A stretch of DNA of 64,000 bases from Cyanidioschyzon merolae (Eukaryota). This document shows, in pieces, positions 13,446 to 60,300 of the stretch. The translations under genes and the position numbers were made by a program. Below the pieces are notes generated by a model. It had not been told where the DNA came from and did not search any database. It saw only the letters and a program-made list of their open reading frames with translations. The DNA is taken from assembly GCA_000091205.1 (NCBI GenBank), contig AP006500.2. One strand, 5' to 3'. The first letter of the stretch is position 1. Each line of letters begins with the position of its first letter.

Positions 13446-14374
13446 GAGAAACAGCGGTAGCACCCAAGGGTGCTGGATACGTCGACACCTGCTCCGTATT
13501 CGAACAAACGCTACTGGAGCAGTGGTATCGCCGTTGGCGCGCAGTATCCGCACCTGACGCGTGCACTGCATGCCATGCAGTTGTGCAGGTCTGTGCCGAG
13601 CATCGAGGTTTTCGGTGCCACAAACGCTGCGGCAAGCGGCATTATCATGGTGTTCAGGTGAAGATGTGCGCATTTCTTTTTACTGCAAACGATGCGTGAG
13701 GCATTCTCGATTTCACAAACACTGATATGCAAGGCGGGACATGCTCATCGACGAGAGCAGATACGACAGTATCCATCCGCCTCGCAAGGAGCCACCCGAG
13801 AACGCTATGCGGCGTCAAGACGTCGAAAACGAACACTCATGTGGCTTGTCTGAGAACGTGCCAGCGTCTTTTCCAGATGAGGGCATTGGTGCGCCTCTCC
13901 ATGAACGGATCCGAACTCGGCAGACGAGAAACGAGTTGAGCAGAACGGAGCCACAACTTTCCCCCAGTCTGGTCGGATGCTACCACCGGTAAAACGTTCT
14001 TTCGCATAGCAAGCACCTTTCGGAAATTCTTTGCGTCGGTATCGTTTTTTATAAGAAAAGAGCTGTCGTCGGTACGCTCTCCACCGAGCCGAACAACGTT
14101 CGGTACCAGGCCATGCAACTCACGTTTCTCTGCATACGAAAGGACCACACGCTCGGCTGCTTACATGGCCCTACTCAGAGTTTCCGTGAGTCAGACACCC
14201 TTCGACGCAGAGTCCCATCCCGGACCTGTTTGAGGCCTCGCAGTCGTCGAGTCGCAGGCGTTTCCGACTAGCCAGCGCGTGCTCGCGCTAGTAGGTGCGC
14301 AGCGATCCAGTGCGATCCGATGCGCTGCTGTTCTTCCGCTGCGCTGAGCGGCTTGCGAACTCCGCGCTGGGCTG

Positions 14375-16834
14375 ATGACCTATGCACTCGACCTGGGGAG
14401 CTCGTGGGACGGTTTTATCGTAATCGGTACACTTGTGGTCCAGTTCATTCTGCGTTGCGAAGCAGACCGGTCCAAGGACGAGTTTGCGAAACAAGTCGAG
14501 CTACTGAGCCTCGTCACTGCTGGTGCGGTGCTCGTTTCCGCATTCAGGCGCGCTGCTTGTGAGCCCTGCCACCGCAAGGCCGCTACACGACGTATATTGG
14601 ACAGCGCATCAAGTTCTCTGGACGCAACGGCTAGCGAGCATAAGACCAGCGGTACTGGACAGACTGCGGTGCGAGCACGGCAGCGCTTTCGTCGAGCACG
14701 AGACCAAGGGCTCCTAGTTGGACTTTTCTTGCCTTTTCTCTGTATCCTTGGTGCGTTGCGCGCTAACCTGCTGACTCCAGCCCAAGCGGTGCACTCGCTG
14801 AGCCTGGCTTTCTGTCAGGCGTGGTGCGCAGCCTGGACCTGGCACCTGGTTCCAGAGGAAACACCGGCACCAGCTGCCTCGGGAGACCGCGCTTTTTGTC
14901 GAAAACGCCGCCCTGTTGGTACCGCGCTCTTGTCAAAAGTGCCGCCTCTGGAGCTGAACTCGGATAAAGAAGGCGCCGGGCTCTGCTGGGCTTTCCTGCT
15001 GGAGCTACTCTGGCTGCATTTGGTACCTCTGGTCATTCTGAGACGGCTCAGCGGTACGTCTTGGATGCCCATCTGTACAGCGACCGTAGCGACGCTGATC
15101 GTCCGCAAGACGCTCGCAAGCGATGCCTTTGCTGGCACGTTTACGTACGGCGAAGCACTCCTGGTATCGTTCCTGGTGACAGTGGCTTGGTTTTCGCCTT
15201 TTCACATGTTCCCGACGGCACTCGGGTCTTGGCATGTAGTAGGAGTACATCAATCACACCCAGCGGTGTGGCAGGAGCACAGCTGCTTTTCAGTTGAGAA
15301 GCGCCTTGTGCCGGCAATGCACTCCGAGTTAGCCGCCGATGTCAAGCGCAGCGGCGTTGAAGCGATCCCGCTGTTTCACTTGTTCAAAGCGAGGCGCATC
15401 TCGGCAGCGTCATGTACTGAGGCTTGCGGTTGCGACGCACAGCCACCAAGGCAGCACGGGAGCCCCGGCACGCTGCAACAGTCGCGTCACATATCGCATG
15501 CTTGTCCGTATCGTCGCCTCATGCAAAGGTATCTGTTGAAGACCTCGGTAGAGCTTGCCACCGCAGGTATTTTGTTTGTGAATCACTGGCACCGATGGTT
15601 AGCGGGCTGGAACCAGGGTCATCGCGCACGCGCATCAAGTTGCGGTGCAGTGGGCATTGCTTTAAGGAGCCAGCAAGTGAGCGCTGTTCGCAACCTGCTT
15701 CGGCGGTTCGCTCGTCCGCTTGGTCTGGCCTTGCCTCTGGCACTGATCCTGCCCTTGAACTACTTGATGGCGCGTCGGACATTGAAGCGTTTATCGAGCA
15801 TGAACTCGGGCTCTTTTAGCGACTGCACAGACGCAGATGCTGCGGAGCCGTTCCGCTTGCTATGCAGCTGGATGACCCGAGACGTGTCGATTATGGTGCT
15901 CGTTCTCTACTGGGCTGTGACGCTTGCGGTAGGCATCTTCGCTCTAGGTCCGCATCGTTGGAAATGGCGACGCATCGTTGCCCGCAAGTACTACCATTTG
16001 CTGGCGCTCTTGCTTTTTATGCCGGTTATCTTGCGGCAGGATCCGCTATTATGGCAGTTTCTTTCCTTTGCTCAGACAGTAGCCTTGGCGGTGCTCATTG
16101 CCCTGGAGCTAGCCCGAATATCGGGTACGAACGCTGCGTTTCCCTTGGAGAGGCACTCGCCGTCAAAAGCTGCTTATTTGGTCGCTGGAACTTCAATGCA
16201 CCAGGTATTCGACGGTGGTCATGATGATGGTGTTTCTGCTGCAGCCAGCGGTGATCGAACAACTCCCTCCATGGATGCATCTCTGGGTGCGTCTGGTGGC
16301 ACGCAGAGTCGCCCCAGTTGCGACGTAACTCGAGGCCGCTCCTTTTACGAATCTGTTCATCAATTCATGACGACACTGGTCGACGAACGTGACCAGGGGA
16401 GCGTCATCGTCAGCCACCTCTATCTGCTTCTGGGATGTGCTGCACCTGGATGGCTTCTCCTGGGGCTCCTCGAACGATTTTCGGCATCGAATGGCTCCTG
16501 GACGAGTTTACTGACAGACTGGAGCAGTGGTCTGCTTTCGCTGGGTGTCTTCGATACTGCCGCGTGCATTCTGGGCAGTCGCTTTGGGAGACACCACTGG
16601 CCTCATAGTCGCAAGACAATCGAAGGCAGCTTGGGTGGCTTTATAGCTACCTGGCTATGTCAGTTGTTGCTGCAGCAGTGGCACGCACCGAATGTATTTC
16701 ATGTCAACTGGACAGCACTTGCGCGTTTCTCCGGTGCTGTGTTTCTCTGCACAGTATTTGAGGCACTTACCGCACAGAACGATAATCTGGTGCTACCAAT
16801 GTTCTGCTTCGCGGTTCTAGGGCTGTTCGGTTGA
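14375..16834 (+). CDS. Dolichol kinase-like polytopic membrane protein (C-terminal CTP-dependent dolichol kinase domain)
   Basis: 819-aa ORF with many hydrophobic segments. The C-terminus ...VFDTAACILGSRFGRHHWPHSRKTIEGSLGGFIATWL... resembles the DOLK/Sec59 catalytic motif (…G.R.G...WP...KT.EGS..GF…). The N-terminal extent is uncertain; the ORF may be over-extended. Confidence 0.6.
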   Translation: MTYALDLGSSWDGFIVIGTLVVQFILRCEADRSKDEFAKQVELLSLVTAGAVLVSAFRRAACEPCHRKAATRRILDSASSSLDATASEHKTSGTGQTAVRARQRFRRARDQGLLVGLFLPFLCILGALRANLLTPAQAVHSLSLAFCQAWCAAWTWHLVPEETPAPAASGDRAFCRKRRPVGTALLSKVPPLELNSDKEGAGLCWAFLLELLWLHLVPLVILRRLSGTSWMPICTATVATLIVRKTLASDAFAGTFTYGEALLVSFLVTVAWFSPFHMFPTALGSWHVVGVHQSHPAVWQEHSCFSVEKRLVPAMHSELAADVKRSGVEAIPLFHLFKARRISAASCTEACGCDAQPPRQHGSPGTLQQSRHISHACPYRRLMQRYLLKTSVELATAGILFVNHWHRWLAGWNQGHRARASSCGAVGIALRSQQVSAVRNLLRRFARPLGLALPLALILPLNYLMARRTLKRLSSMNSGSFSDCTDADAAEPFRLLCSWMTRDVSIMVLVLYWAVTLAVGIFALGPHRWKWRRIVARKYYHLLALLLFMPVILRQDPLLWQFLSFAQTVALAVLIALELARISGTNAAFPLERHSPSKAAYLVAGTSMHQVFDGGHDDGVSAAASGDRTTPSMDASLGASGGTQSRPSCDVTRGRSFYESVHQFMTTLVDERDQGSVIVSHLYLLLGCAAPGWLLLGLLERFSASNGSWTSLLTDWSSGLLSLGVFDTAACILGSRFGRHHWPHSRKTIEGSLGGFIATWLCQLLLQQWHAPNVFHVNWTALARFSGAVFLCTVFEALTAQNDNLVLPMFCFAVLGLFG

Positions 16835-18346
16835 AGTCGTGTCTCGTGTACTGGACAACGATTACGCGTTTCCCAGATGCTCTGTTTCTCTGCACAGGAT
16901 ATGAGACGCTCACTGCGTAGAGCGCCAAATCGGTGCAACCGAGGGTCTGCTTCGCACTTTTAGAACTGTTCGCGGGAAGTTATCCATCTGCGACTTGTGT
17001 CCCGGTGATCGAGTCTCGCACGATCGCTCGTGGAGACTGAGTTGGAAATCAACCCCTGGAGGCCTGCTCTGCGAAGGGCTCAGCCAAGTGCATGTTCTTT
17101 CGCCTCAGGATACGATCATAAAGCTGGGATGTTTTCGAGCATAGTCCATAAAGGATGCGTGATTCGGATGCGTCTCTGGATGGAATTGGTCTTTCGAAAG
17201 GGACCCAGTGTGATCGGCGCCTTATCGCTGCCGACAAGTTTACCGACATCGATAGGAGCCTTCAGCTCGAGTCTCGGTCGCTGCGCGTGTTTCTCCTGGT
17301 TGCGCCAGCAGAGCGCTCGTATCTCTTCAGCGTATACGCGGATGACGGCACGGGAGGTTCCAGATGTGCTTTGCTCGGAATCCATGTGCTTCTGACTCCA
17401 GTACGACGGAATCTGCATTGTTCACGGTTCCCGTTGTTCTCGACACGGTATTTCACTGTTCGTGTAGCGGGTCATCCGCGATCTCCGAATGTTCGCCTTT
17501 TTCCAAGCCAAACAAGGTCTATGGAATACCCCCGCTTCAAACATCCTGTCCCAAGGTGCAATGAAGGGTCTGATTCTCGATGAACTGCCCCCTGGAGACT
17601 TTCGGTGGGATCTTGTGCCGTCCCTGAGGCGCCAGATGCAGCAGCAGCTTCTTGCGCGAAGTTTCGTTTCCTGTATGTGCAAGCGTTCATGAATTGGTGC
17701 AACGAAATAACGTCGTGCGGGTGTGTGTAACGTCGCCAGCGAGACGACAAGCTTTGCGACGGCACATAGCCAGCTCTTAGTGCTAGATACTTTACGTGCG
17801 TCGAAGCGTTCACAGCCGCCTTGCCGTGCGCCCATTAAACTTTGGTGCGTTCATGAATACCGCACCCGAAGCGGCACCACTGCATATCGAGAAGGGCTGG
17901 ATTCATGCATCCCTTTTCAGCGCTCCGTTGGGATCATTGCAATCGATTTCGACGATTCGCTGCAACGTTGTTCACACTCTTTCAGCCTAGCGTTGTGCCT
18001 CCCATCTCGGGGGCATGCGCGTGTGTACTGTGGTCAAAAATCGTCGCATGTACGCAGCGTTGGTGTTCATCTACAGAATGAAGTGCGTCGACTCTAATGC
18101 AGACACCTTGCTTATCGGGTAACCGAATGTTGCTCTGTGGCCAGTCATGTGGAGGTGCGCACGCAAAGCTCGAATCGTGTGCAGTGAACAATGGGCACAA
18201 GAGGCACTGCATTTTTCCTGACATACGAGCGCTATCATGCGGAGTGGTTCCTTGGCTCACGAGCGCAGTGTGCACCATCAGCACTAGGGAGCATTCGGCG
18301 CGCGTTCACTTCGCTGCCGTGTCACCCGCGACCGCCAAAATGCCGG

Positions 18347-19189: not shown

Positions 19190-19440
19190 AGGAGGTGGTG
19201 GTGGTTGCGGAGACAGCACGCTATACTATTCAGGTAGGTAGGTACGCTCTCGGCACACCGGGAGATCCAGAATGCGTCGAGGCCATTGCTGGATATGCCC
19301 ATCTTAGAACGAAAAGAGAAGGACAGCACGCTATACGATTCAGGCAGGTAGGTACGCTCTCGGCACACCGGGAGCTCCAGAATGCGTCGAGGCCATCGCT
19401 GGATATGCCCATCTTAGAACGAAAAGAGAAGGAGTTCTTC
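19190..19440. repeat. Tandem duplication, ~110 bp x2
   Basis: cagcacgctata..attcagg.aggtaggtacgctctcggcacaccgggag.tccagaatgcgtcgaggccat.gctggatatgcccatcttagaacgaaaagagaagga occurs twice, starting near 19214 and 19324. Confidence 0.6.
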
Positions 19441-24614: not shown

Positions 24615-27350
24615 CGTCTTACAAGATAAACGCTGCTGCGGCCAGAAGTGTACAGTAGTGGCGAGAAACGCGCCCTAGACAAGACCTCTCCAAGTGACGT
24701 GCAGACGCCTCCCAGACTTTTTGGACCGGCCACCAACTACTGATTCCATTTTTTTCTCATATTAGTCCACTTTGAGAGGTTCTCCCACAAAATTCTCTCG
24801 TGTTCAGCTCTGGAGGTCTCGTCTCCAACACCGCACATCTCCTTATATTGACAGCGGCATTAAAGTCTCTGTTCACGAATTCCATACGTTTCTTGCCATC
24901 ATTGGTTGTACTTACTAATGCAAGTATTCCTCGAACTTTCGCTCCCCTTTCCATTCGCTCTACCGTCAGCGCCCCGTACGTTTTCATATCCTCAGGGATC
25001 CGCTGGCACTTTTCCATCTCCACTCTCTGAAGTGTATATCCCAACTCATGGTGTTTATAGAATGTTCGAAACTTATCTTTTGGTATCGTAACGAAACGTC
25101 GTGCCCACTCCTTGTACGTTCTTGTCGTTGGGGCTGGGGTACACCCTTTTTGGGTCACCCAGCGCCCTGCTCCGTACGCTACTACCAGCCTGTGACTCTT
25201 GTCGTCCTCCAAGGCGCTCAACTCATTAAAGAACTTGGCGAATGCACGCTGCTTCCCACTGTATAGATTCATACGCAGACGAGCCCAGCGGGGCTTTGAA
25301 TATTCTTTCCACATCTCCTCGTCATGAGCAGCCTGGGTTTCCATGAATTCCCGAAAGGCTCGAAAAACCGCCCCGCGGTTTGTCACTTTGCTGAACTCCT
25401 CACGGATATCGAACTCCGGGCTGATTTCTTTCAATGGGCCATGAAGGACGCTGGAGTTGATAGTCACAAAATGTGACTTGACGTTGCATAACGGAACGAC
25501 ATTGAAGCGCTTCCCCATTAGGGCAGCCTTCCGTCTCTCCCACTCCTCATTTTCTTCCTCATCCCGCATCATCTCCGCCTTGCGTTTGAGTTCTCGGTCC
25601 AAAAACACGAAATACGGCAGGATGAGGCGAAAGTATCTTTCCTTATATTTTTTCAACTCTGATATCTTTTCTGCTGGATTAGCCAGCCCAAGTACAAGAC
25701 GATCCTCTTGAAAAAGCGCACGGATTACAGAAGCTTCACTCGTATTCTCGTTTGACACTTTCTTGTCGACAAATTCGATCTCATCTTCATGCTGGCCATT
25801 GTTTTTGATACCATTGATAATCGCCCATATTGCTTTGCGAGAGAAGACCGGGTACAGCGCAAACACGGCGCGTATCATGAAACGTTCGAGGTTCATCGTC
25901 GAATGGTTCTTCAGGTTCGTGATGTACTTCATCGCCCCGTATGTGCAAATACGCGAGTCACCCTTGTATCGAGTACCCTCGAGGCTGTAAAACGGACGTT
26001 TTTCGTGAAGAGCGTGAACCCGCTCATTTTCCCTGCGCGTTTCCCCTGTGCCAAACATCAGCTGGCGAGTAGAGGTCTTGTCGAAAAACTCGTCTGGAAT
26101 CTCGACTGTTTCCATGTGCGTCACGTTGCGATACATCTCCCTCGCCAAATGCATCAGTCCTGACGACGCCTTAACAATGCTCTTGGAGCACGAGTCGACA
26201 CGGTTGCGGATGGCGTCTCGCAACTTTTCCTTGTACGAATCCTTCACACGTTTAAGAAGACAGGCTTTCGCCACCATCTCGTCGTACTGTTGCCTTTCGT
26301 ACAGCTTGTTCGTCTTCTCTTGTACCTCTGGACTCTGTACTGATTGTCGTCTTTTTCTGGCAGCTGGCGACACTGCGCCTCCAGGATCCTCTACTTCCTT
26401 TTCTATACGTTTCCTTTTTGTATTTGTTTTTTTTTTCTTGAAAAAGAGCGCATTTTTGAACGCTTCTTCTACAAACCAGCAAAAATAACTTGACCCCAGT
26501 CTGTTGAGGGTTAAAACGCAATCGAACTGAAAACGATGCTTTGCTACGACTACAACGCAAACACATCTTTTTCGGTGGAGCAAAACTCTATATATCAGGA
26601 TCGCGTTTCCCTTCCACAGCGACATTTACGTCGTGCCTCGTGAGTGCCAGTTCTCGAGGTGCGCGTATCGACCGCGCCATGGATAAAAGAATAGAAACGA
26701 GTCATGAAGTAGCAGCTCGATAACAATTTCTTTCCCCTCTACGGTAGGCGTTAGATGGGGAAAGTTTCTAAGCTTTCGAAAGTTCACCTTAGAGGCGGAA
26801 AAGCGCGCGAGCGGGACGAATTTCCCAGTCTCATGCTTCATGCTCCCTCCAGTGCCCAGCGCTGTAGCGAGATATAAGCAGCTTGTCCGAAACGCAGTTT
26901 ATTCTTGGACTCTGAACGGGTAGCCTGCGTCTGGTCGTCGCGCTGGTCCCAGTGGACTCCTAGCGTATCGCTTCGCGCAGCCGCAGCCGGTAGGTCTGTC
27001 CGCGCCGTTTCCAGGTTCCCAGAATGATAACGAATCCCGACCCCGTATCAGATGAACCCTGCCTCGATCCGGCACCCTCTGTGGTATGGTAAAGCCTTTC
27101 TGTCTCCGTGCTGCATCCGTTCCAGCGGTAGAAGCGCCACGGCGAGTGCTCAAAGCAGGTAATCGGCGCATGATAGAACATTCGAAACGACCGGTGCACC
27201 CGAAAGAATACACCAGTAATGGAACTTGGAGGTAGTTGCCTTATGATGGACAATTACATGAATCCTAATACCCGTCCCGCAATCTGGTATCCCTTATCAA
27301 TGAAGACGTTTCTTCATCGAAAAAAGATCAGCGGTACTGCTTCGAGCAGC
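24615..27350 (-). mobile_element. Fanzor/TnpB-like element, copy A: RE, 622-aa ORF, ~380-bp conserved spacer and ~0.45-kb 5' module R2
   Basis: Conserved along its whole length with 57040-60300 in inverted orientation. The 3' non-coding block 24615-24757 matches 60095-60300 and 10885-11045. The spacer 26550-26930 and R2 26930-27350 match the reverse complement of 57040-57940. Confidence 0.6.
24757..26625 (-). CDS. Fanzor/TnpB-like (OrfB_IS605-type RuvC) protein, intact 622-aa ORF, copy A
   Basis: C-terminal RuvC-III signature ...KKRMEFVNRDFNAAVNIRRCAV... (RDxNAAxNI, about 24847-24885). N-terminal lysine-rich NLS-like tract FFKKKKTNTKRKRIEKE. Collinear with the frameshifted paralog at 57950-60095. 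Relative to that paralog it lacks, in frame, the ~130-aa segment carrying the RuvC-I-like strand. The true start is uncertain because the ORF extends ~75 nt past the conserved 5' boundary of the element. Confidence 0.7.
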   Translation of the reverse strand: MSLWKGNAILIYRVLLHRKRCVCVVVVAKHRFQFDCVLTLNRLGSSYFCWFVEEAFKNALFFKKKKTNTKRKRIEKEVEDPGGAVSPAARKRRQSVQSPEVQEKTNKLYERQQYDEMVAKACLLKRVKDSYKEKLRDAIRNRVDSCSKSIVKASSGLMHLAREMYRNVTHMETVEIPDEFFDKTSTRQLMFGTGETRRENERVHALHEKRPFYSLEGTRYKGDSRICTYGAMKYITNLKNHSTMNLERFMIRAVFALYPVFSRKAIWAIINGIKNNGQHEDEIEFVDKKVSNENTSEASVIRALFQEDRLVLGLANPAEKISELKKYKERYFRLILPYFVFLDRELKRKAEMMRDEEENEEWERRKAALMGKRFNVVPLCNVKSHFVTINSSVLHGPLKEISPEFDIREEFSKVTNRGAVFRAFREFMETQAAHDEEMWKEYSKPRWARLRMNLYSGKQRAFAKFFNELSALEDDKSHRLVVAYGAGRWVTQKGCTPAPTTRTYKEWARRFVTIPKDKFRTFYKHHELGYTLQRVEMEKCQRIPEDMKTYGALTVERMERGAKVRGILALVSTTNDGKKRMEFVNRDFNAAVNIRRCAVLETRPPELNTREFCGRTSQSGLI

Positions 27351-33907: not shown

Positions 33908-35505
33908 ATTGGTGTCAGCATAAAATGGAGCAGGTCCACGAATACTGGCTAGCTCTCTAAAAAATGGGCCTCTTCTCCTGGCCGTCAGCGCCAGCCACTG
34001 TGGGATTTTTCCGTGACTGCTTCTTGTTTTATGTTTCTTGTATCTGAAATGAAAAACCGCGGTCTGTCCTTTTACTCTAGATCGGTTGTCACTAGTCGAT
34101 GGATATTGAGGAACACGTCCAAGCGCCGATGTGGCCGATTCAAGCTGTTATCGACGAATATCATAGACACTCGATCGTTGTGAGCTACGCTTCACTCGCC
34201 ATTTTCATGTTATTTATACAGAGCCCCAGTGCGTCCTTCGCGGCGGTGGCGCTTAACTCTTTTCAGATGTTCCTATACGCGCACCAAACATCCGCGGGCT
34301 TCTCCTCCTTCTTCTTCGAGCACCGCCACGTGACACGGGAACGCTTGCTTCGTCCCTAACCACACGAACTTGACGGGTAGCGTGGGGTTCCTTCGATGTC
34401 TCACTCCGTTTCCGCGCCTCAGTGCTGTACCCTAGGATGACGGGCGTCGTCGTCGGCAATCTCCTCGGCGAGTGTGCTGTTCGCAGGACACGAAAGCGTA
34501 GGCTGCCCCATTCGGCTGCGGATTTGTGGAACGCGATATTGACCATGACGAAACAGTGTCTGGAAGGAAACCCGGGCCTGACGAAGCACTCGAGAGATCC
34601 AGTTCCATCTACGCTCCGTTCGTGCAGCGGATTTGTGGAACGCGATACTGACCATGACGAAACAGTGTCTGGAAGGAAACCCGGGCCTGACGAAGCACTC
34701 GAGAGATCCAGTTCCATCTACGCTCCGTTCGTGCAGCGGATTTGTGGAACGCGATATTGACCATGACGAAACAGTGCCTGGAAGGAAACCCAGGCCTGAC
34801 GAAGCACTCGAGAGATCCAGTTCCATCTACGCTCCGTTCGTGCAGCGCGGTGAAGCAGCCTCCGATAGAAGCGATCGCTGCGATAACGCAAGTCCGAGTC
34901 CAAGACACTTCTCCATGCAAACCGAAGACACGCGGGCCTCTACGAGCATACCCCGTGCAGCGTCGCACGCTGTTGTTGGCTCGCGCTCCACCGATAGCGT
35001 CAAAACGGGTAGGAATTGTTGTTCGGTCGATTTCAGCTAATGGAGGCGACAAGGTCAGTGAGCTTACGTTATGAGCTTGTACATACGACGTTCAGGGACA
35101 GCATCGACTTTTTCGTTTCCACGTCAATCCACCAGCGCCAACGCCTGCACCAACGAGTTGCTTTGAACGAGAACGATCGAAAACTTGAGCAGTGTCTGTG
35201 CTGCGAGCCTGCTATACGTCGGGCAAGGACAGGTGCGGCGGCTTGTACGCATGCATCGAATAACGATATCCGTTATTTGAGGAAGCCTTGTCTGAGGGCG
35301 TCGCGAATCGTCTCGACCCCAGTGCCGTCACGAATTCCAGCAACGACGAATTGAACGGGAGACACTGCAACAGAGACCGACCGAGACTCCTACAACTGCG
35401 TATCGGTTCGTATGCTCTTATTGCTGAACTTCAAATGTTGAGGCCGTGCTTCTAAAAAATCTTCGGAAAACTATCGAATGGTTAGAATGGAGCGAGCGGC
35501 TCAAT
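33908..35505. repeat. Left arm of large inverted repeat (R4 family element) with internal 109-bp tandem sub-repeats
   Basis: Near-identical reverse complement of 36425-37812. Arm ORFs 35016-35354(+) and 36589-36927(-) differ at 2 of 112 aa; 34099-34359(+) and 37366-37626(-) are almost identical. The outer ends match (ggtctagattggtgtcagcataaaatggagcaggtccacgaatactggctagctc…). Confidence 0.85.
34506..34860. repeat. 109-bp tandem repeat, ~3.3 copies, inside the left IR arm
   Basis: Unit cgtgcagcggatttgtggaacgcgata.tgaccatgacgaaacagtg.ctggaaggaaacc.gggcctgacgaagcactcgagagatccagttccatctacgctccgtt. Identical ORF starts at 34633 and 34742 (period 109). The right arm carries about two fewer copies, which accounts for the ~210-bp difference in arm length. 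Confidence 0.7.
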
Positions 35506-36424: not shown

Positions 36425-37812
36425 ACTCAGATGGAAGATGCAGCCGCTCGCTCCATTCTAACCATTCGATAGTTTTCCGAAGATTTTTTAGAAGCACGGC
36501 CTCAACATTTGAAGTTCAGCAATAAGAGCATACGAACCGATACGCAGTTGTAGGAGTCTCGGTCGGTCTCTGTTGCAGTGTCTCCCGTTCAATTCGTCGT
36601 TGCTGGAATTCGTGACGGCACTGGGGTCGAGACGATTCGCGACGCCCTCAGACAAGGCTTCCTCAAATAACGGATATCGTTATTCGATGCATGCGTACAA
36701 GCCGCCGCACCTGTCCTTGCCCGACGTATAGCAGGCTCGCAGCACAGACACTGCTCAAGTTTTCGATCGTTCTCGTTCAAAGCAACTCGTTGGTGCAGGC
36801 GTTGGCGCTGGTGGATTGACGTGGAAACGAAAAAGTCGATGCTGTCCCTGAACGTCATATGTACAAGCTCATGACGTAAGCTCACTGACCTAGTCGCCTC
36901 CATTAGCTGAAATCGACCGAACAACAATTCCTACGCGTTTTGACGCTATCGGTGGAGCGCGAGCCAGCAACAGCGTGCGACGCTGCACGGGGTATGCTCG
37001 TAGAGGCCCGCGTGTCTTCGGTTTGCATGGAGAAGTGTCTTGGACTCGGACTTGCGTTCTCGCAGCGATCGCTTCTATCGGAGGCTGCTTCACCGCGCTG
37101 CACGAACGGAGCGTAGATGGAACTGGATCTCTCGAGTGCTTCGTCAGGCCCGGGTTTCCTTCCAGACACTGTTTCGTCATGGTCAATATCGCGTTCTACA
37201 AATCCGCAGCCGAATGGGGCAGCCTACGCTTTCGTGTCCTGCGAACAGCACACTCGCCGAGGAGATTGCCGACGACGACGCCCGTCATCCTAGGGTACAG
37301 CACTGAGGCGCGGAAACGGAGTGAGACATCGAAGGAACCCCACGCTACCCGTCAAGGGCGTGTGGTTAGGGACGAAGCAAGCGTTCCCGTGTCACGTGGC
37401 GGTGCTCGAAGAAGAAGGAGGAGAAGCCCGCGGATGTTTGGTGCGCGTATAGGAACATCTGAAAAGAGTTAAGCGCCACCGCCGCGAAGGACGCACTGCG
37501 GCTCTGTATAAATAACATGAAAATGGCGAGTGAAGCGTAGCTCACAACGATCGAGTGTCTATGATATTCGTCGATAACAGCTTGAATCGGCCACATCGGC
37601 GCTTGGACGTGTTCCCCAATATCCATCGACTAGTGACAACCGATCTAGAGTAAAAGGACAGACCGCGGTTTTTCATTTCAGATACAAGAAACATAAAACA
37701 AGAAGCAGTCACGGAAAAATCCCACAGTGGCTGGCGCTGACGGCCAGGAGAAGAGGCCCATTTTTTAGAGAGCTAGCCAGTATTCGTGGACCTGCTCCAT
37801 TTTATGCTGACA
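36425..37812. repeat. Right arm of large inverted repeat (R4 family element)
   Basis: Reverse complement of 33908-35505. The inner end at 36425 (gccgctcgctccattctaaccattcgatag) mirrors 35470-35505. Confidence 0.85.
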
Positions 37813-38049
37813 CCGGTGTAACACGAGACACTTGCCACTGTCGCGCTTCTATCCGCGTGCATGTACGTATGCTCGAGTTACCCGCCCCGTTGCCGGCGAC
37901 GTAATGAACAAGCTCACTTGGCGCACACCTAAAGACTCCCAAGCATCACGCTTTGACAGGCTCTATTATACCACACTCTTTGAAAGAAACAGCGCCACAC
38001 ACAGTATCGACGAGATATCTCGTTGCTATGACCTGCGCGGCGAATACAG

Positions 38050-47400: not shown

Positions 47401-48198
47401 CTAGAGACTCGGATGTTCTGGGACCTTTCTAGTCGAGTAAGCGTCGTTTTCGCAGTTAGGAAGACCGCCGAACTGCCGTCTTCGTTCGTGGAATGCCTCT
47501 AATGCCCGGAAAAAGTCACGAGACGTAAATTCTGGCCACAGGATATCGGTTGTATAGATTTCCGCGTAAGCAGCCTGCCAGAGCATAAAGTTGCTGAGCC
47601 GTTGCTCGCCGCCAGTGCGAATGATCAAGTCCGGATCGGGAACGTCGATTCCCCAGCACTGCGCCAGGTAGGTCTCAAACACGGATTCGTTGACACTGTC
47701 GGGGTCGAGCACGCCTCTTTCTACATCGCGAGCGACGCAACGTACAGCCTGTAGGATATCTTGTCGACCACTATAGTTGAGCGCTACCTGGAGACACAGA
47801 GCTCGATTCGACCGCGTGCGCTCTTCTGCATCGTGCATTCGTTCGCGAAGCGAGTCTGGAAGTGCACTACGGTCGCCGACAAAGCTCACACGCACACTAC
47901 GCGATTGCAGCTTTTCGAGCTCTGTATCCACAACATGTTGAAAAAGCGAGAGCAAACTCGATATTTCAGCAGCAGGACGTCGCCAGTTCTCGGTGCTGAA
48001 TGCAAATACTGTTAAGAATGGAATATGCAGCCAGAGGCAGTCCTCGACGATTCGACGCAATGTCTGGGTGCCGTACTCGTGACCCGCGGAACGACTTCCG
48101 CGGACGCGGAGCCCCCAGCGCCCATTCCCATCCATAATGATGCCTATATGAGTCGGTAACTTGAGCTTCTCAACCAAATGATCACGTATGCGTTCCAT
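47401..48198 (-). CDS. cis-Prenyltransferase (undecaprenyl/dehydrodolichyl diphosphate synthase family)
   Basis: ...HIGIIMDGNGRWGLRVRGSRSAGHEYG...LTVFAFSTENWRRP..E...LM........RVSFVGD...L...........T......L..A.NY.GR.DI..A........RTGGEQRLSNFMLWQAAYAEIYTTDILWPEF.... The ORF extends to 48780, which would give a ~195-aa N-terminal extension (possible transit peptide). The conservative start is the ATG at 48196-48198 (MERIRDHL…). Confidence 0.8.
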   Translation of the reverse strand: MERIRDHLVEKLKLPTHIGIIMDGNGRWGLRVRGSRSAGHEYGTQTLRRIVEDCLWLHIPFLTVFAFSTENWRRPAAEISSLLSLFQHVVDTELEKLQSRSVRVSFVGDRSALPDSLRERMHDAEERTRSNRALCLQVALNYSGRQDILQAVRCVARDVERGVLDPDSVNESVFETYLAQCWGIDVPDPDLIIRTGGEQRLSNFMLWQAAYAEIYTTDILWPEFTSRDFFRALEAFHERRRQFGGLPNCENDAYSTRKVPEHPSL

Positions 48199-49329
48199 GT
48201 CTGTTTGACCGGCTACCTTGGGAGGCTCCTTCGTTGGATAGTCAGCGGCCACGGGACCAGTTGTGATACAATCTGAAGACGTTGCATGCTCCGAATTCTC
48301 CAGTTTTTGACATAACCTTAGCTGGAAACATCCACGATGCAGCCTGTTTCGGAGCTGGCGGTTGCTTGGACTCCGCGGAAGCAGGAGACAGTTGTGAAGC
48401 GTCCCGTTTTGACGAAGGTTGCGCGCTCCCCAGCGGACGCCAGCAGCGGAAAATGAGCGCCGATTTTCGGTGAAAGCGCCACTAGGTCGTCTGTGTCGAC
48501 AGGGGACCTTGGCGTCGTCGTGGAAAATACACCAAGTCCACGAAGACACACCAGCGGCCGGTGGTGGACCCGCGTAGGTCAGCAGACGCTCGTGGCGCAG
48601 CGAGCAACGTCCACGCAACCGCTGAGGTTCAGACGCTCGCGGAATTGTTTCCATCAAAAACACCGGCCACATGACGTCTTGCGTGCGCTCTGCAATGTCA
48701 GGGAAGACGAGGTGCGCTCTGTCGCACCGCGTAGCTAACGCTTCGTCTTCCGGCAACGCGCACGGCAGCCGTGAAGGCACGCCCGCACAGCGTCTTTGGC
48801 ACAGCCTCAGAGCGCCAAAACCTCAAGAACTTCCCTCTATAGCCAGTACAAGTGTCCGAGTCCGTACAGTGCGCTGCTGTGCGAAGCGCACAGCTCGTCC
48901 AGTCTCAGCAGTTCAAAAAAGCGCGTTGTTTACGAGCACGCGTTCAGCGTATGTGGAGCGCCTTGCGCGGCACCGTTTACCACCGGCAGCTGCGTTGTGT
49001 ACGTTTCTGGCGGAAACGATTGCAAAGCTGGTAACGACACTTGTTTCACTTTATCAGACGTTCTGTTAGCGGGCGCAGTACGTAGAGCGCTTGCTCACAA
49101 CGTTACCAGCTGCCGATACGAGATCCCAATGCGGTGGCAGTGCGAGTTGCAGAGCGCACCCGTACGCTTGCTTGTGGTGTCGCGTGCTCGCTCAGGAGGC
49201 AAGACGACACAATCGGCATCTGATACTGGACGACGTTTACTTCGATGGTATTGGGCACTTGGCGTAAGCTGACACAGAAATGGATGCTACCTAGTCGTTG
49301 GCTGAAATGCCTGATCTGCCTTTCACGGA

Positions 49330-49500
49330 GCTTTTTTTGGGAGGCATGCTTGAGGATTTCCATCGGAACCCCTGAGCGCTCATGGGAAAGCGAGCATAAC
49401 GCGTTGGGTAAACGAGTTTGAGATAGTATCTCTACCCTTTACAGAGCATTTCTGGGAGGCATGGTTGAAGATTTCCATCGCAATACCCGAGAGCTCATGG
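49330..49500. repeat. Imperfect direct repeat, ~120 bp x2
   Basis: gggaggcatg.ttga.gatttccatcg.aa..cc..agcgctcatggg.aagcg at ~49335 and ~49455. Each copy encodes on the minus strand a short ORF beginning MEI(L/F)(K/N)HASQK. Confidence 0.5.
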
Positions 49501-49537
49501 GCAAGCGCGCTTCTCGTTTTATTCCGACGAAAAGACG

Positions 49538-49560
49538 GGTGTGTGTGTGTGTGTGTCTGT
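49538..49560. repeat. (GT)n dinucleotide microsatellite
   Basis: gtgtgtgtgtgtgtgtgtctgtgtctc. Confidence 0.85.
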
Positions 49561-51169
49561 GTCTCTTGGAACGTCAAGTCATCCGGAGGGACTAGTTGAT
49601 CTGGTTTCGTGCTTGCTGGCTGTGCGGGCATATGCAGGAGGCCGCAATTGATGCATCAACCCCACAGCATGAGAAAAACACTCCTGGATGCAACAGCGGA
49701 AGTGACCATTCTTACTCGTAGGCAAGCGCGCAGAGATGTCGTTCAGGGATTTCGGATCGTCGACGCTGACTGCGAATCCCCGATGAAGCGATTGATATCC
49801 GCGTCCATCATTGCGCATCGCACTGTGAGGCGTCACCAATCACCACCTTTGCTTCTCTTCACGTATACTAGTCCGCCAGTTCGTGTGATGCTGTGTGGTG
49901 CCGACTGCCTACCCTGAGCGCCGACGAGGACGTACACGGTGCCGCAGCGGATGCTGCACGGAGGCAAAGCGGCTTCGCCATACCCGTGAGAACGTCGGCT
50001 CTAAATGTGGTTTATTTGACGCGTCGTCAGGTATCTCCCTCATGTCGTGCCCTGACAGTCACTGTATGCGGACCTGACTTTACATCAAGATGCGTTGCAG
50101 AAAAGAAGCTGTCAGGAGGAATCCTGAAAACCCCGAGTCTTCGCTTCCCTGTATTGGGAGGCATGCAATGCGGTCTTGCGACTCGGGGGCCATTGCGCTG
50201 CACTCAGCAGCCAGGAGATGCACGAAACGCCGGGCGCGCATGTTCATGCAGTTCGCGGCTCTTTTTCGCCTAGAAAGACGAATAAGAGTTTGGTGCCAGA
50301 TAGCGCGCATTTTGGTCCAACCAGTGGGCCTCCAATTGTCAGTTCTGCACCCAAAATAAGCGAACGCTCATGAGCATCTATAGTGACATCCACGAGGTGT
50401 GATTGCTCGAACAGCCAGCTTCGTTCCTGTGTCCGAACGCGAACACTGCAAAAGCGAGTCTCGCCGAGCATTGGGAGTTACGTCTCCCCTGCAGAAGCAG
50501 TATGATTCCCTGCGAGCATGTAATTTTTCGATGCAACACAAGGCCCGGACGTGCTAGACTTCACCGATTCGCTCTTTAGCGAGCCAGACGGTTCCCATGG
50601 GAACCTCTGACCACCCCAATGACTCCCGCCAAACGTTTCATGTCTCTACTCGGTGGTTCTTCTAATGGGATGCGAGGCCAACGTTGAAGATCCTGTTCTT
50701 TCGAAATCGGCATTTGCATTCTTTGCCTTGAACCGTTCGTTAGAGATGTCGAGAAAAGAGTCAGTCCCAGAAACCAACTGGTATATATCCACTCCAAAGC
50801 CATACTTGAGGAAAATCTGCCTCCACTAGACCCAAACGCTTTTTCGATACCTTGGGATGCACGCCATCATCCGGTTGAGCCGGGGGCGCGTGCTGGGCCT
50901 CTTGGCCCTTGTACGACGCGCTGCAGTCTGCTGCAATGACTTCCAACGGGGGTGTATAGGATTTACATCCGAGAGCTTCCGTGCTGGGTGCTCTGCCGAG
51001 CATCCCGACACGATTCGCATCGACCTGTTGACTGGGGTCTGCATTCGCGAAGCGAGTGCGAGGCTCATGCCCCACCATTCGACGCCCCAGGTGACCGCCT
51101 TGATGATGCACATCCTAATTGACCCGATGCAGACTCCCAGCGACATCCCTATGGGTCCGATAAGAACCT

Positions 51170-51455
51170 GCATGCACGAGCTGAGCGTTTCTTGATCTTG
51201 GCAATCTCCTCTCCTATATATACACACTTTCATCCAGTGTGCATGCACGAGCTGAGCGTTTCTTGATCTTGGCAATCTGCTCTCCTATATATACACACTT
51301 TCATCCAGTGTGCATGCACGAGCTGAGCGATTCTTGATCTTGGCAATCTGCTCTCCTATATATACACACTTTCATCCAGTGTGCATGCACGAGCTGAGCG
51401 TTTCTTGATCTTGGCAATCTTCTCTCCTATATATACACACTTTCATCCAGCATCG
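51170..51455. repeat. 71-bp tandem repeat x4 with TATA-like core, immediately upstream of the oxidoreductase gene
   Basis: Unit gcatgcacgagctgagcg.ttcttgatcttggcaatct.ctctcctatatatacacactttcatccagtgt. Copies start at 51170, 51241, 51312 and 51383, giving an exact period of 71 with 1-2 substitutions per copy. Confidence 0.85.
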
Positions 51456-51462
51456 ACGTGAG

Positions 51463-52728
51463 TTGTACCAGGGCGCGGCGGGATTCGGCGTTGCCTCGCG
51501 AGCATCGCACTATCCGAAGATCGGCACTCGAGCTGCGCGTCCGAGGTGCTCCACAGCAGCTTCTAAGGTTCTGGCACAGCCTACGATGCGTATGGAACAG
51601 CCAGCAGCGTTTCTGAGTGGCAAACTACAACCCTTGTGCCTAGATCGCAAGTTCCAGTTGCGCGTGAGCGGGTCACGGCAACAGTTTCGGGGCCGCCGCC
51701 GACCCATTCTCGTCGCCCGGGTCGGGATCGGCGTCATCGGTGCAGGCCGCATAGGACAGGTACATGCAGCAACGATAGCTCGTCTGATGAATGCAGAGCT
51801 ACGAGGTATTGCTGATCCAATTGAAGCAGCTGGGCGTAAGGTGGCCGAGAGTTTCCAGACAGCGTACTTTCCAGACTATCGTACGCTGCTAGAGGACCCC
51901 GATGTACAGGGTGTCGTCATCGGCTCGCCAACGCCGTTTCACGCGGAACAAATGATAGCTGCAGCCGAAGCCGGCAAGCATATATTTTGTGAAAAGCCTA
52001 TCAGCAACGATCTCGCGACGATCGACCGTTGTTTAGAGGTGGTACGCACCAGCGGCGTCAAACTCCTGGTGGGGTTCCAGCGGCGCTTCGATAGTAACTT
52101 TAGCTACGTACGTGACCAGATTGAGCGTGGCACCATTGGGCAAGTGCGTATGTTTCACATCCATTCAAGAGATCCGGCGCCACCTCCGGCGGAATACTTG
52201 GCGAAAAGCGGAGGTATTTTCCTCGACATGTGTTCCCATGATTACGATATGGCGCGTTTTGTGACGGGCCAGGAAATCGAGGAGGTTTACGTGGTTGGCA
52301 AGGCCTTCGATCCCGAGGCACAGGCCGCAAATGATCTCGACACCCACATAACGGTACTGCGGATGTCGGGCGGGGTCATGGGCACCATCGACAACTCTCG
52401 TCGTTGCGCATACGGCTACGACCAGCGTATCGAGGTGTTTGGCTCCGACGGTTCGTTAATCGGTCAAAACAAGAGCAAGCACTCCGTAGTAGCCGCCGGT
52501 CAAGATGGGTATCATCATGGACGACCTTTTGATTTCTTTATGGATCGCTATCTGGAGGCGTACGGGAACATCATGACCGCATTTGTGCAGATGATCGAGC
52601 GCGGCACAGACCCCCCTGTCTCGGGGTTAGACGGTCGCGCGCCGGTGCTCGCTGCGCTGGCCGCAGCCCGAAGTGTCAAGGAGAATCGACCAGTGAAACT
52701 CAGCGAAGTCGATATACGCATGCGCTAG
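51463..52728 (+). CDS. Gfo/Idh/MocA-family NAD(P)-dependent oxidoreductase (myo-inositol 2-dehydrogenase-like)
   Basis: Rossmann N-terminus ...IGVIGAGRIGQVHAATIARL...GIADP..E.AGRKVAE.......Y...LLEDPDVQGVVIGSPTPFHAEQMIAAAEAGKHIFCEKPIS... Typical IolG/Gfo C-terminal alpha/beta domain. The ~75-aa N-terminal extension may be a targeting peptide, or the true start may be internal. Confidence 0.8.
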   Translation: MYQGAAGFGVASRASHYPKIGTRAARPRCSTAASKVLAQPTMRMEQPAAFLSGKLQPLCLDRKFQLRVSGSRQQFRGRRRPILVARVGIGVIGAGRIGQVHAATIARLMNAELRGIADPIEAAGRKVAESFQTAYFPDYRTLLEDPDVQGVVIGSPTPFHAEQMIAAAEAGKHIFCEKPISNDLATIDRCLEVVRTSGVKLLVGFQRRFDSNFSYVRDQIERGTIGQVRMFHIHSRDPAPPPAEYLAKSGGIFLDMCSHDYDMARFVTGQEIEEVYVVGKAFDPEAQAANDLDTHITVLRMSGGVMGTIDNSRRCAYGYDQRIEVFGSDGSLIGQNKSKHSVVAAGQDGYHHGRPFDFFMDRYLEAYGNIMTAFVQMIERGTDPPVSGLDGRAPVLAALAAARSVKENRPVKLSEVDIRMR

Positions 52729-57039: not shown

Positions 57040-60000
57040 AGCTACTATCCTGCATCGGAACGAAGGACGCTCACCCGCGGTAGTGTCGCGCTTCTGATCC
57101 GCGCAGGCGCGTAAGCCGGCAGGAGTCGTTGCTGCATCGAGTTTTTTTCGATGACAGAGCGTTTCCATTGACCATGAATCCCCAATAGCGGGATGGGTAC
57201 TACGATTCATGTAATTCTCCATCATGACGCAACCTATCTCCAAGTTCCATTACCCATATTTCCTCTCAGGTATACTGGTCTTTTCCTTTGTTCTATCGTA
57301 TGCCAAGTGCCTGCAGTGAGCACCCACCGCAGCGCCTAAACCGCTTGTGCGGATGCTACACGGAGACAGAGTAGCTTTGTCATACCACTGAGGGCGTCGG
57401 CTCGAGGAATGCTACACCTGACACGGGATCAGGGCTACTTATCATTCTGGGAGTCTGGAAGCTGCGCAGGCAGGCGTACTGCCTGCGGCAGCGCAGAGCG
57501 ATATTCTTCGAGGACACCACGACCAGCGCGACGCCCAGACGCAGCATACCGCTCTGAGTCCCAGAATAAACTGCATTGCGGACGAGTTGCTCAGATCTCT
57601 CTGCATGACCAGGCTCCGAGAGGTCTATGAAGCACGAGCCTGGGAGAATCGTCCGACTCGCGGGACATTCCGCCCAGAAGGTAAACTTTCGTCAATATGG
57701 AAATCTTTGCTCCCCATGAATTTTTATCATTGACAGGGAAGGCAATTGTTATCTCGCTGCCAGTCAGTAGTGAGTCTCTGCTCTTCGTTCTATAGAGTAC
57801 AGTCGATAGGCGCACCCAGGAGATCTGCCAGGCACGAGGTACGACGTGGATATCGCCATTGAAGAGAAACGCGATCCTGATCATTAGCATGTTGTATACC
57901 GTACAAGGTGTATTTGCGTTGAAGTCGTAGCAACGTTTAGTCTTCAGTTCAGTTGTGTTCCAACCCCAAAGCAAGTATATACGAGCGATTTTTCGTGGTT
58001 TATAGCAGAAGCGTTCAAAGTGTGTTCTTTTTCGAAAATAAAAAAGGAAAGTTCTGGACGAAGAAGTGGAGGATCCTGGAGGCACGGTGTCGCCAGGTGG
58101 CGAAAAGAACGAAAAATAGTGCCGAGCAAAGATGAACAGGAGAAGAAGAAGAAGAAGCGAGAGCCAGACCTCAACGGCTGCAAGAAAGGCGACAGCATGA
58201 CGAGATGATAGTGAACGCCTGCCTTCTTGGATGTATCAAGGATCCGTACGAGCAGAAGATGCGAGAGACCACCAGAAGCCGTGTCGATTCCTACTCCAGG
58301 AGCGTGCGTAACACTTCTTTTTGGACTGAAGCATACGGTGAAGGAGATATACGATGACCTTACCGACACGAAAACAGTCGAGGTTCCGGAAGCGTTTTTT
58401 TTAACAAGACCCTCAGCCGCCACTTGATGCTTGGCACAGGGGGACGTCGAGGGAAAATGAGCGCATGTGCGTCCTCCATGAAAAATACCCCTACTAGGGT
58501 CTCAAAGGTACTCGTTACAGGGGTGACTCGCGTATTTTCGAATACAGGGCAAAAAAGTATCTCACGAACCTGAACAACCATATGATCATGAAGCTCGAAC
58601 GTTTCATGACACGCTCCATCGTTGCGCGCTACCCGGGCCTCTCTCGCAAAGGGATACGGGCCATCATCAATGGCGTCAGGAACGATAGTAAGAATGAACA
58701 GGAGATCGAATTCCTCGACGAGAAGACATCACACAGGAGAACGAATGAAGCTTCTGCAATCCGTACGGCAATTCAAGAGCACCGTCCGGTCTCGGAGCTG
58801 GTCAATCCAGCAGGAAATGTATCAGGTATGGAAAAAGAAAAGCAAAGATGTTATCCCCTAATCCTGCGCTATTTCGTGTGTTTGGACCGCGAACTCGATC
58901 CCAAGGCCAATATGGAGCTGGGTGTGGAACAAAATGTAGAGTCAGAGAAACGGAAGGGTATCCTAACGGGTAAGCGCTTTAGCGTTGTTGCGTTATGCAT
59001 CACCAAGTTCCATTTTGTAACAATCGACTCCAGAGTCCTCAACGGCATCATGAAGGAGGTCTGTCTGGAGTTCGATGTAAGGAAGATAGAGTTCACCAGT
59101 GAAAACCGGGAGACGTACTGGAAGAATATCTTCAATTTCAAACGTCTCAATACGTGCAAGCAAAAGGTATTCACTGGCATCATCGAAACCGATGGAGTAG
59201 CCATGTGTGTACACTCTCGGCGCTTGAAGGCAGATCGTCCAGTTCCGTCCTCGACTGCGCCCGTGGCGAAGCATGAAGAAAACAAGGAGGCTGGCCTTAC
59301 AACGCAGGAGGTACAGGAGAACGATTTTGTTGTTGGCACGGACCCTGGGAACACGAATATCGTAACCATCGCAGTACCCAAGCGTGCGGAAGATGATATC
59401 GACGGCAACTTACGTCAGAAGGACATCCGTCTTTGAAAGCTCACGACAGCTACATCTTACCGAGAATCAGGAAAACTGAATGCAAGGAAAAGAAATGAGA
59501 CGTGGAATGCAGGAGTGAAAGAGCACAAGGCAGCGATCAGCCAGGTGACGAGCCGAGGAGCGGACTTTGAAGCTTTTCGAGAGTTCATGAAAGTCCGCGC
59601 TGCTCTTGACGAGCCGCTGTCGAAAGAATCTACAAAGCCCCGGTGGGCTCGTCTGCTTAGAATCTTGTACTTTGGGAAGCAGCACGCATTTGCCAACTTC
59701 TTCAATGAGTTGAGCGCTCTCAAAGAGGACAAAATTCAGAGACTCGTGGTGGTATACGGAGCAGGGCATTGGATGACACGGAAAGGTAGCACACCAGCTC
59801 CATCGACACGAGCGTATAAGGAGTGCACACTGTGCTTCGTCATGATGTCGATAGATGGGTTCCGAACGTCGTATACATCCACCATGAGCTAGGGTGTGTA
59901 CTTGAGAGTGTCGAGATGGAAAAGTGCCAGCAGAGCACTGAGGATGTAGCAAACTACGGAGCGCTGACAGAGCACCTAACGGCATGGAGGGTGCGAGTTC

Positions 60001-60300
60001 GAGGTCTACTTCCGTTGGTGAGTACAACCAATGCCAAGAAACATATGAAATTCGTGAACCGAGACTTCAATGCCGCCAACAGTATAAGCAGATAGGCGGT
60101 GCTGGAGAAGAGGCCCCCAGAGTTGACCAGAGCCAACTTTCTGGGGCAACCTCTGCAGATGGCGCTGTACGAGAAGAAGCTGAAGCCAGTAGTAAATGGC
60201 CGGTCCAAAAACCCTGGGAGAATTCTGCACGCTGGCGTATATACATCAACGCTATCGGCTTGATGTGTGTGCGTTCGTTTGCTCGTTTTGCTGGCGGGAT
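57040..60300 (+). mobile_element. Fanzor/TnpB-like element, copy B: R2, spacer, full-length but disrupted ORF and RE
   Basis: 57040-57560 is R2 in reverse complement relative to 26930-27350. 57560-57940 is the spacer, the reverse complement of 26550-26930. 57950-60095 is coding. 60095-60300 is the conserved 3' block (…ccagag.tga.c…aacctct…cagtag…tggccggtccaaaaa.cctgggag…tctgcac…). Confidence 0.6.
57950..60095 (+). pseudogene. Fanzor/TnpB-like gene, copy B; retains RuvC-I-like and RuvC-III motifs; disrupted by stop and frameshifts
   Basis: Frame pieces 58582-59436, 59437-59892 and 59823-60095. RuvC-I-like ...[19 protein letters not shown]... at 59333-59356. In-frame TGA at 59434-59436. Frameshift near 59870. 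RuvC-III ...KKHMKFVNRDFNAANSI.... The N-terminal NLS-like region 57950-58210 (…QEKKKKKRE…) is itself split across two frames. About 60% amino-acid identity to copy A over alignable parts, estimated by eye. Confidence 0.65.

Follow-up and report, generated by a model that had tools for sequence, protein, structure and literature searches.

A strain-polymorphic 71-bp minisatellite with a candidate TATA box upstream of the probable inositol 2-dehydrogenase gene CMR475C of Cyanidioschyzon merolae

Introduction

In front of an oxidoreductase gene of the red alga Cyanidioschyzon merolae, a 71-bp sequence with a TATA core is repeated head to tail. The question raised by this locus is whether the array multiplies a promoter module of the gene, forms part of a transcribed leader, or is a minisatellite without consequence for expression. 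As a model, C. merolae is genetically tractable, and its genome is very compact and poor in repeats. The locus supplies this model with a short, testable candidate for a core promoter, 71 bp long and containing a perfect TATA box, and with a natural copy-number series, the latter being a route to learn whether promoter-module dosage tunes red-algal expression. The array is also a hypervariable single-locus marker, with which strains sharing identical coding sequences can be typed in hot-spring metagenomes. If neutral, it would be merely a further example of intergenic long-unit tandem duplication.

In the literature on C. merolae we found no map of transcription start sites (TSS), no promoter dissection, no study of interstitial minisatellites and no report of this array. 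No endogenous promoter of the alga had a mapped TATA box or TSS as of 2025, and a heterologous TATA/Inr core promoter (human IL-2) works in it (PMC12770821).

Results

Identity of the gene and position of its start codon

The window, i.e., the whole 64-kb stretch of DNA analyzed, has sparse long ORFs and a GC content of about 55%, and seven of its proteins are identical to GenBank proteins of C. merolae strain 10D. The coordinates of the features of the locus are summarized in Table 1. The gene downstream of the array was named CMR475C from the consecutive locus-tag numbering that joins BAM82633 (CMR468C) and BAM82636 (CMR471C), and by the same numbering its upstream neighbor BAM82639 (undecaprenyl-PP synthase; 47401-48672, minus strand) is CMR474C. 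Between them there is an intergenic region of 2.8 kb with no further annotated gene. CMR475C is located on chromosome 18 and is named in PMC1892068 solely as part of a chr18/chr4 segmental repeat.

The initial annotation had placed the array about 10 bp upstream of the oxidoreductase ORF, a distance counted to a TTG at 51463 which was rejected as a start, since it came from a bacterial-code ORF listing applied to a eukaryotic gene. The true start is the annotated ATG at 51586, with which the N-termini of the closest orthologues (environmental relatives with 83% and 86% identity, and Cyanidium caldarium) align. The gap between array and gene is thus 133 nt, and the array runs from -417 to -134 relative to the ATG, i.e., within the 5′ upstream region of the gene, as had been proposed and as is found in promoter VNTRs. 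An extension of the enzyme from the TTG was ruled out by the eukaryotic nature of the gene, the annotated ATG, the absence of any ATG in 51388-51585 and the agreement of the orthologues. The suggestion that an annotated N-terminal extension may be untranslated was therefore right only in that 51463-51585 lies outside the protein; no such extension is annotated in BAM82640.1, in agreement with the orthologue N-termini. The CMR475C protein has an N-terminal presequence of about 45 aa ahead of the Rossmann GxGxxG motif, and the orthologues likewise.

Two environmental contigs carry other sequences in front of the gene. From 51570 on, L001 (JGI) matches the window with 99.4% identity, and its CDS is 99.7% identical to that of 10D; it joins unrelated sequence 17 nt upstream of the ATG, where an in-frame upstream ATG leads to a 417-aa call; its first 121 nt had no match in the window, at other loci or in prokaryotic genomes. 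In the P0201 contig (402 aa), yet another sequence takes over about 34 nt upstream of the ATG; it supplies an in-frame ATG and residues 1-11 of the protein. An AG/G at 51566-51568 of the window adjoins the L001 breakpoint. These junctions may correspond to the boundary of the chr4 copy of CMR475C implied by PMC1892068 (2007), to promoter-replacement alleles or to chimeras.

Structure of the array

Tandem Repeats Finder (TRF) reported a repeat at 51169-51450 with a period of 71, 4.0 copies, 98% matches, 0% indels and a score of 543. The consensus unit, TGCATGCACGAGCTGAGCGTTTCTTGATCTTGGCAATCTGCTCTCCTATATATACACACTTTCATCCAGTG, was matched at 51169, 51240, 51311 and 51382 with 1, 0, 1 and 3 mismatches, respectively. 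The head-to-tail arrangement and the unit length place the array among minisatellites (units of ~10-100 bp). The left edge is sharp, with unique DNA up to 51168 (...GATAAGAACC) followed directly by TGCATGC. At the right edge, the strict periodicity reaches 51450 and the two terminal bases of unit 4 are CA, not TG, after which this unit passes into unique sequence. The description made in the initial annotation, four 71-bp copies that start abruptly after unique sequence and share a sequence core, was in these respects accurate: there are no indels and at most three mismatches per unit, the boundary is at 51168, and the core, TATATATA, is in every unit. The units differ in the bases at unit positions 20 and 40, and C40 marks the first unit across all 4-copy alleles.

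Table 1. Coordinates of the array, its parts and the downstream gene in the window.
Feature	Position	Strand	Description	Basis
Array	51169..51452	+	Four 71-bp units	TRF, pattern search + shuffles, sequence
Unit 1	51169..51239	+	C at unit position 40; adjoins the unique left flank ...GATAAGAACC	
Unit 2	51240..51310	+	Equal to the consensus; T20, G40	
Unit 3	51311..51381	+	A20, G40	
Unit 4	51382..51452	+	Proximal; T40, CA end	
Proximal TATATATA	51428..51435	+	Candidate TATA box, 158 nt upstream of the ATG	
Other three TATATATA	51215-51222, 51286-51293, 51357-51364	+		
uORF ATGCACGAGCTGAGCGTTTCTTGA	51385..51408	+	Seven codons, MHELSVS*; once per unit	
Inverted repeat ATACACACT/AGTGTGCAT	51220..51244	+	9-nt arms, 7-nt spacer; spans a unit junction	
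Putative 5′ leader	51453..51585	+	Unique 133-nt stretch from array to start codon, no ATG	
CDS of CMR475C / BAM82640.1	51586..52728	+	Probable inositol 2-dehydrogenase (Gfo/Idh/MocA), 380 aa	Exact protein match, Pfam, orthologue alignment, locus-tag numbering

Contents of the repeat unit

The palindromic octamer TATATATA occupies unit positions 47-54, and the four copies in the array, one per unit, are the only ones in the 64 kb. In each unit it conforms in sense orientation to the TATAWAW consensus, which occurs just 11 times outside the array in the 64 kb with both strands counted, and whose probability in a random 71-mer is about 1%. CA dinucleotides lie 24-32 nt downstream of TATATATA. Downstream of the last uORF start there is an ATG-free run of 198 nt (51388-51585); at the ATG frequency of the window, the probability of finding no ATG is 0.13 for 131 nt and 0.04 for 198 nt.

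Each unit also starts with the palindrome TGCATGCA and contains a seven-codon uORF, the other copies of which begin at 51172 and 51243 (MHELSVS) and at 51314 (MHELSDS). The uORF would be relevant only where transcription begins upstream of it. The inverted repeat ATACACACT/AGTGTGCAT recurs at 51291-51315 and 51362-51386, i.e., at the internal junctions only, being absent after the last unit; any role of it in slippage or recombination is speculative. A structured ncRNA or tRNA identity of the unit was rejected, as Rfam gave no hits at the gathering threshold or at E ≤ 1, ARAGORN gave none, and the fold was unremarkable: the predicted RNA of array plus leader was not more stable than shuffled sequences (z = +1.2).

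Occurrence of the unit elsewhere and at orthologous loci

A pattern search found the consensus unit nowhere else in the 64-kb window, with 0 matches also in 100 dinucleotide-preserving shuffles, and a self-comparison of the window gave no repeat involving 50.0-51.6 kb besides the array itself. A scan of the JGI metagenome collection with a unit-derived 30-mer gave five stretches, all at the CMR475C locus and in one flanking context only. The possibility, raised initially, that the unit is a common genome-wide minisatellite thus finds no echo in the window or in that collection, where no second locus of the kind expected for a dispersed satellite was found.

As to the sister lineages (L002, L003 and L004), local alignment of a unit dimer to the 900 nt upstream of each orthologue gave scores no better than those of shuffles. 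An ancestral single copy in these lineages was therefore rejected, and no homologue of the unit was found there. In L003 and L004, no TATAWAW occurs in the roughly 400 nt before the ATG; L004 has only TATAAAG at about -414. Together with the TATA variants TCAATATA, TATATATG and TCAATATG of natural strains, this means that no conservation of the TATA motif of the kind left by purifying selection was found.

Array alleles of natural strains

Alleles were collected from environmental contigs by the 30-mer scan of the JGI metagenome collection and from the contigs encoding members of the protein cluster. All are short-read metagenome assemblies. The same array with its flanks was present in independent assemblies from at least 8 samples. 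The comparison covers about 8 alleles (Table 2).

Table 2. Array alleles of strain 10D and of environmental contigs (units listed from distal to proximal, separated by semicolons; TCAATATA, TATATATG and TCAATATG are mutated TATA motifs).
Allele	State	Copies	Units
10D window	Fully flanked	4	C40; G40; A20,G40; T40,CA end
L005/L006, L009	Fully flanked	4	As 10D except unit 3 = A20,T40,TCAATATA
L016 (ENA)	Fully flanked	2	G40; T40,CA
L011	Fully flanked	2	G40; A20,T40,TATATATG,CA
L013	Fully flanked	2	G40; A20,C40,TCAATATG,CA
L014	Cut by contig end	at least 3.4	
L015	Cut by contig end	at least 2.2	
L007+L008	Cut by contig end	at least 4	
L010, L012, L017	Cut by contig end, incomplete		

The variation in copy number between isolates that had been suggested as a check does exist in nature: strains have 2, at least 3.4 or 4 copies. 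Both the copy-number polymorphism and the reshuffling of variant units that characterize VNTRs were thus seen, as far as short-read metagenome assemblies allow: the variants (T/A at 20, C/G/T at 40, and those of the TATA motif) occupy different unit positions in different strains. The CDS of all array-bearing contigs is 99.0-99.7% identical to that of 10D, and L013, L014 and L015 have 0 CDS differences and yet three different arrays. Such shuffling of unit variants, with arrays that differ next to identical coding sequences, indicates a hypervariable single-locus minisatellite, and to judge from these alleles the array is reshuffled faster than point substitutions accumulate. Position-specific variants are common to strains, so the array predates their divergence.

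The array upstream of CMR475C is, then, a minisatellite (VNTR) that occupies a single locus and is polymorphic between strains. It originated by tandem duplication of a 71-bp upstream piece within the C. merolae species complex, and its units are still being rearranged by slippage, unequal recombination and inter-unit conversion.

Concerning the TATA motif, every one of the about 8 alleles retains at least one intact TATATATA, and the proximal copy is degenerate in L013 (TCAATATG), in L017 and in L011 (TATATATG). No allele with 0 or 1 copy between these flanks was found among the about 8. There are about 5 variable sites in the 133-nt leader vs. about 6 per 71-bp unit. In L011, the change to TATATATG creates at 322-324 (window 51433-51435; also in P0195) a new ATG upstream of the main ORF and in its frame, from which a 431-aa reading frame continues uninterrupted in L011 and P0195. 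This ATG of the last unit would add 51 residues to the enzyme if transcription starts upstream of it.

Some candidates for information on transcription were discarded. L017 was rejected as a transcript: it lacks a poly(A), and its start within the last unit is typical of contigs that break at a repeat. L001 was rejected as a source of a TSS, given its foreign 5′ end. In the lookup for transcript 5′ ends, the exact 380-aa and 421-aa products were not on record. A gene on the opposite strand that might use the palindromic TATA, the 105-aa ORF at 50761-51078(-), was also rejected, since it was called only by prokaryotic gene callers and is unannotated in 10D. This ORF, directly left of the array, appears as a 'hypothetical protein' on several environmental contigs. 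Its conservation is 100% in three strains, a fourth has 3 nonsynonymous to 1 synonymous changes, and it probably does not represent a gene.

Discussion

A putative promoter function and its alternatives

The presence of TATATATA in every unit, with the proximal one at -158 and an ATG-free leader behind it, fits the duplication of a TATA core-promoter segment. The sense orientation, the 198 nt without ATG and the about 1% chance of such a motif in a random 71-mer speak in favor of a TATA promoter, as does the activity of the human IL-2 TATA/Inr core promoter in C. merolae (PMC12770821). On these grounds, we put forward, with an evenly divided judgment, the composite interpretation that the array is a minisatellite with a duplicated TATA core promoter, in which the proximal copy would work and the extra copies would modulate expression. 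The duplicated 71-bp piece would contain the TATA box of CMR475C, and the proximal TATATATA (51428, 158 nt before the ATG) would act as core promoter. From the canonical TATA-to-TSS spacing, the TSS would be expected at about 51452-51465, and the resulting leader would be ATG-free and about 125-135 nt long. The upstream copies would be redundant copies of a core promoter or of an upstream element, and they would contribute additional binding sites for factors and/or additional initiation sites, the transcripts from which would contain one, two or three of the 7-codon uORFs. On this view, strains with different copy numbers (2 to at least 4), or with substitutions that inactivate a TATA, would differ in expression quantitatively rather than by an on/off switch.

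Some observations count against this interpretation. A sense TATAWAW is missing from the 500 nt before the ATG in about 19 of the window's 21 other candidate genes, which suggests that C. merolae promoters are mostly TATA-less. The L003 and L004 orthologues have no TATAWAW in the last 400 nt or so before their ATG either, and the unit has no detectable homologue upstream of L002-L004. Besides, the occurrence of TCAATATG in the proximal position in some strains argues against a strict dependence on the proximal TATA. It could also be that (TA)4 is itself fragile or slippage-prone and so favors duplication, which would explain its presence without a promoter role.

This leads to the reading of the array as a neutral minisatellite, born by an accident of slippage or unequal exchange in the roomy 2.8-kb intergenic region, with a TATA-less promoter between array and ATG or elsewhere, TATATATA being incidental or a slippage-prone seed and copy number drifting without effect. 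We consider it a rather unlikely but serious account. Long-unit tandem duplications are common in the window (143 × 1.9, 110 × 2, 109 × 3.1 and 71 × 4), and the 109-bp unit is expanded in one arm only of an inverted repeat whose arms are 98-99% identical. Almost none of the other upstream regions has a TATA box, the orthologous promoters have none near the ATG, variants that destroy the TATA motif are tolerated even in the proximal unit, and the array is not more conserved than its flanks, if the about 5 sites in the 133-nt leader are compared with the about 6 per 71-bp unit. What a neutral origin does not account for easily is a TATAWAW that would be met in only about 1% of random 71-mers, its sense orientation at a plausible spacing from a leader that lacks an ATG, and the retention of at least one intact TATATATA in each of about 8 alleles, none of them with 0 or 1 copy. 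Transcription could, alternatively, start upstream of 51169, leaving the array in a long 5′ UTR in which the uORFs (MHELSVS*) damp or regulate translation according to copy number. Each unit has indeed an ATG with an in-frame TGA after 7 codons, and the last unit with TATATATG (L011, P0195) opens its 431-aa frame, a change that matters only if the region is transcribed. However, the 400 nt upstream of the array have no promoter-like feature and no TATA except one TATAWAW at 50782, the uORF peptide appears unconstrained (the V/D polymorphism resulting from T20A), and neither the fold (z = +1.2 vs. shuffles) nor Rfam, without a match, points to an RNA structure; we deem this account improbable.

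Long terminal repeats (LTRs) have TATA boxes, and some are repetitive internally. The unit lacks a homologue at the orthologous loci of the sister lineages, and the array might be the remnant of a mobile element (e.g., an LTR U3 with its TATA box) or a dispersed satellite that landed upstream of the gene. This is very improbable and has been largely refuted by the absence of the unit from any other position of the window, by the single flanking context in the metagenome scan, and by the fact that neither terminal repeats nor ORFs of transposon type were noticed in its surroundings. As to an artifact, in which assemblers would have made the repeat or its copy-number differences, tandem-repeat copy number is inherently fragile in short-read assemblies, and seven contigs break inside the array (L007, L008, L010, L012, L014, L015 and L017). 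Against it, both the finished 10D chromosome and independent JGI and ENA assemblies contain the array, with position-specific unit variants. It is unlikely, from the unit variants, that the 2-copy alleles are collapsed 4-copy arrays: their flank-adjacent unit has G40, not the C40 of 10D, and the 2-copy L016 (k141_..., 29 kb) needs a 141-mer, made of 30 nt of left flank plus the G40 and T40 units, which is absent from the 10D array. Moreover, there are three independent 2-copy assemblies with three different proximal units. An artifact is thus scarcely credible.

Returning to the duplicated core promoter, a bolder version of it, which we regard as unlikely, is that the strains form a natural allelic series of whole TATA-initiator core-promoter modules (2, 3 or more, and 4 copies, some units having lost their TATA box) that sets the transcription of inositol 2-dehydrogenase and the leader/uORF content differently between hot-spring populations. 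If that were true, the array would be a copy-number 'rheostat' built from whole core promoters, not from factor-binding microrepeats, and would give the first endogenous core promoter defined in C. merolae; in the strains with TATATATG, upstream initiation would yield the enzyme with its 51-aa N-terminal extension.

Comparison with known systems

The array is of a familiar kind: by structure and polymorphism it belongs with promoter VNTRs, and its effect on expression is putative. The human INS-VNTR and MAOA-uVNTR are promoter VNTRs that modulate transcription, and the promoter repeats of yeast are said, in work by Vinces and colleagues from 2009, to confer 'transcriptional evolvability'. Like these, the C. 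merolae array is head-to-tail, lies within a few hundred bp of the start codon, varies in copy number between isolates, and changes its copy number faster than point substitutions occur. Unlike them, it has a long (71 bp), non-degenerate unit with a perfect TATA octamer, so that what is repeated would be candidate core-promoter modules rather than nucleosome-disfavoring or factor-binding microrepeats.

Fungal CYP51 genes offer another comparison. In Penicillium digitatum, a 126-bp enhancer is present five times upstream of PdCYP51A (PMC8471628; Hamamoto 2000, PMC92165), and Aspergillus fumigatus cyp51A has the promoter duplications TR34 and TR46 (PMC5146965, PMC4954732). In these cases, as in C. 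merolae, the multiplied piece is unique DNA upstream of one metabolic gene, some tens of bp to about 100 bp long, and its copies vary between isolates. However, the 1-copy ancestral allele is common in the fungi, while none was found among the about 8 C. merolae alleles, a small sample, and the unit is unrecognizable in L002-L004. The fungal unit is a demonstrated enhancer or SrbA-binding region and its amplification is tied to overexpression under azole selection, whereas the C. merolae unit has no defined factor site and the array no such link.

With respect to TATA/initiator core promoters, TATATATA agrees in being a sense TATAWAW with downstream CA and an ATG-free leader, and it differs from a canonical TATA promoter in that the motif is rare in the region, is not conserved in orthologues and is degenerate proximally in some strains. 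Similarly, each unit resembles uORF-bearing 5′ leaders in having a short ATG...TGA frame upstream of the main ORF, although the peptide is not conserved (V/D).

Other repeats and minor observations in the window

Other repeats of the window are worth recording. In the same intergenic region as the array, about 1.6 kb upstream of it, the two copies of an 81-bp direct repeat (49315-49395 / 49431-49510) are 80% identical, and a (GT)12 microsatellite comes after them (49539-49562). A 110-bp × 2 duplication with 96% identity (19212-19433) lies 190-410 nt upstream of the ATG at 19024 (minus) of the YEATS-domain gene BAM82630; this is the second case, besides the array, of a long unit duplicated in front of a gene, and it has no TATA motif. 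A 143-bp × 1.9 tandem repeat (16707-16980, 75%) overlaps the 3′ end of the dolichol kinase gene (14375-16834).

An inverted repeat with arms of about 1.4-1.6 kb that are 98-99% identical (33911-35501 / 36442-37814) flanks CMR469C (BAM82634, 35530-36201, minus), which has a weak, sub-threshold ChuX/HutX-like Pfam match. Its left arm contains a 109-bp array of 3.1 copies (34511-34847), and the right arm about 1 copy (37096-37220); the 109-bp array is a second recent tandem expansion in the window.

An inverted segmental duplication of about 2.6 kb with 67-75% identity joins 24698-27325 and 57143-60231, and the segments 5477-6088, 26710-27311 and 57229-57763 are also related. The duplication covers a 622-aa ATG ORF (24757-26625, minus) with no Pfam domain, the exact sequence of which was absent from the protein collection that has the neighboring 10D proteins; it may represent an unannotated or differently annotated repeated gene family. 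Finally, the WD-repeat (TTG1-like) gene at 12384-13673 (minus) has an uninterrupted 429-aa ATG ORF, which occurs in the protein collection from environmental sources only, and its product BAM82628 has 353 aa in the 10D annotation; the true start may lie further upstream than the annotated one.
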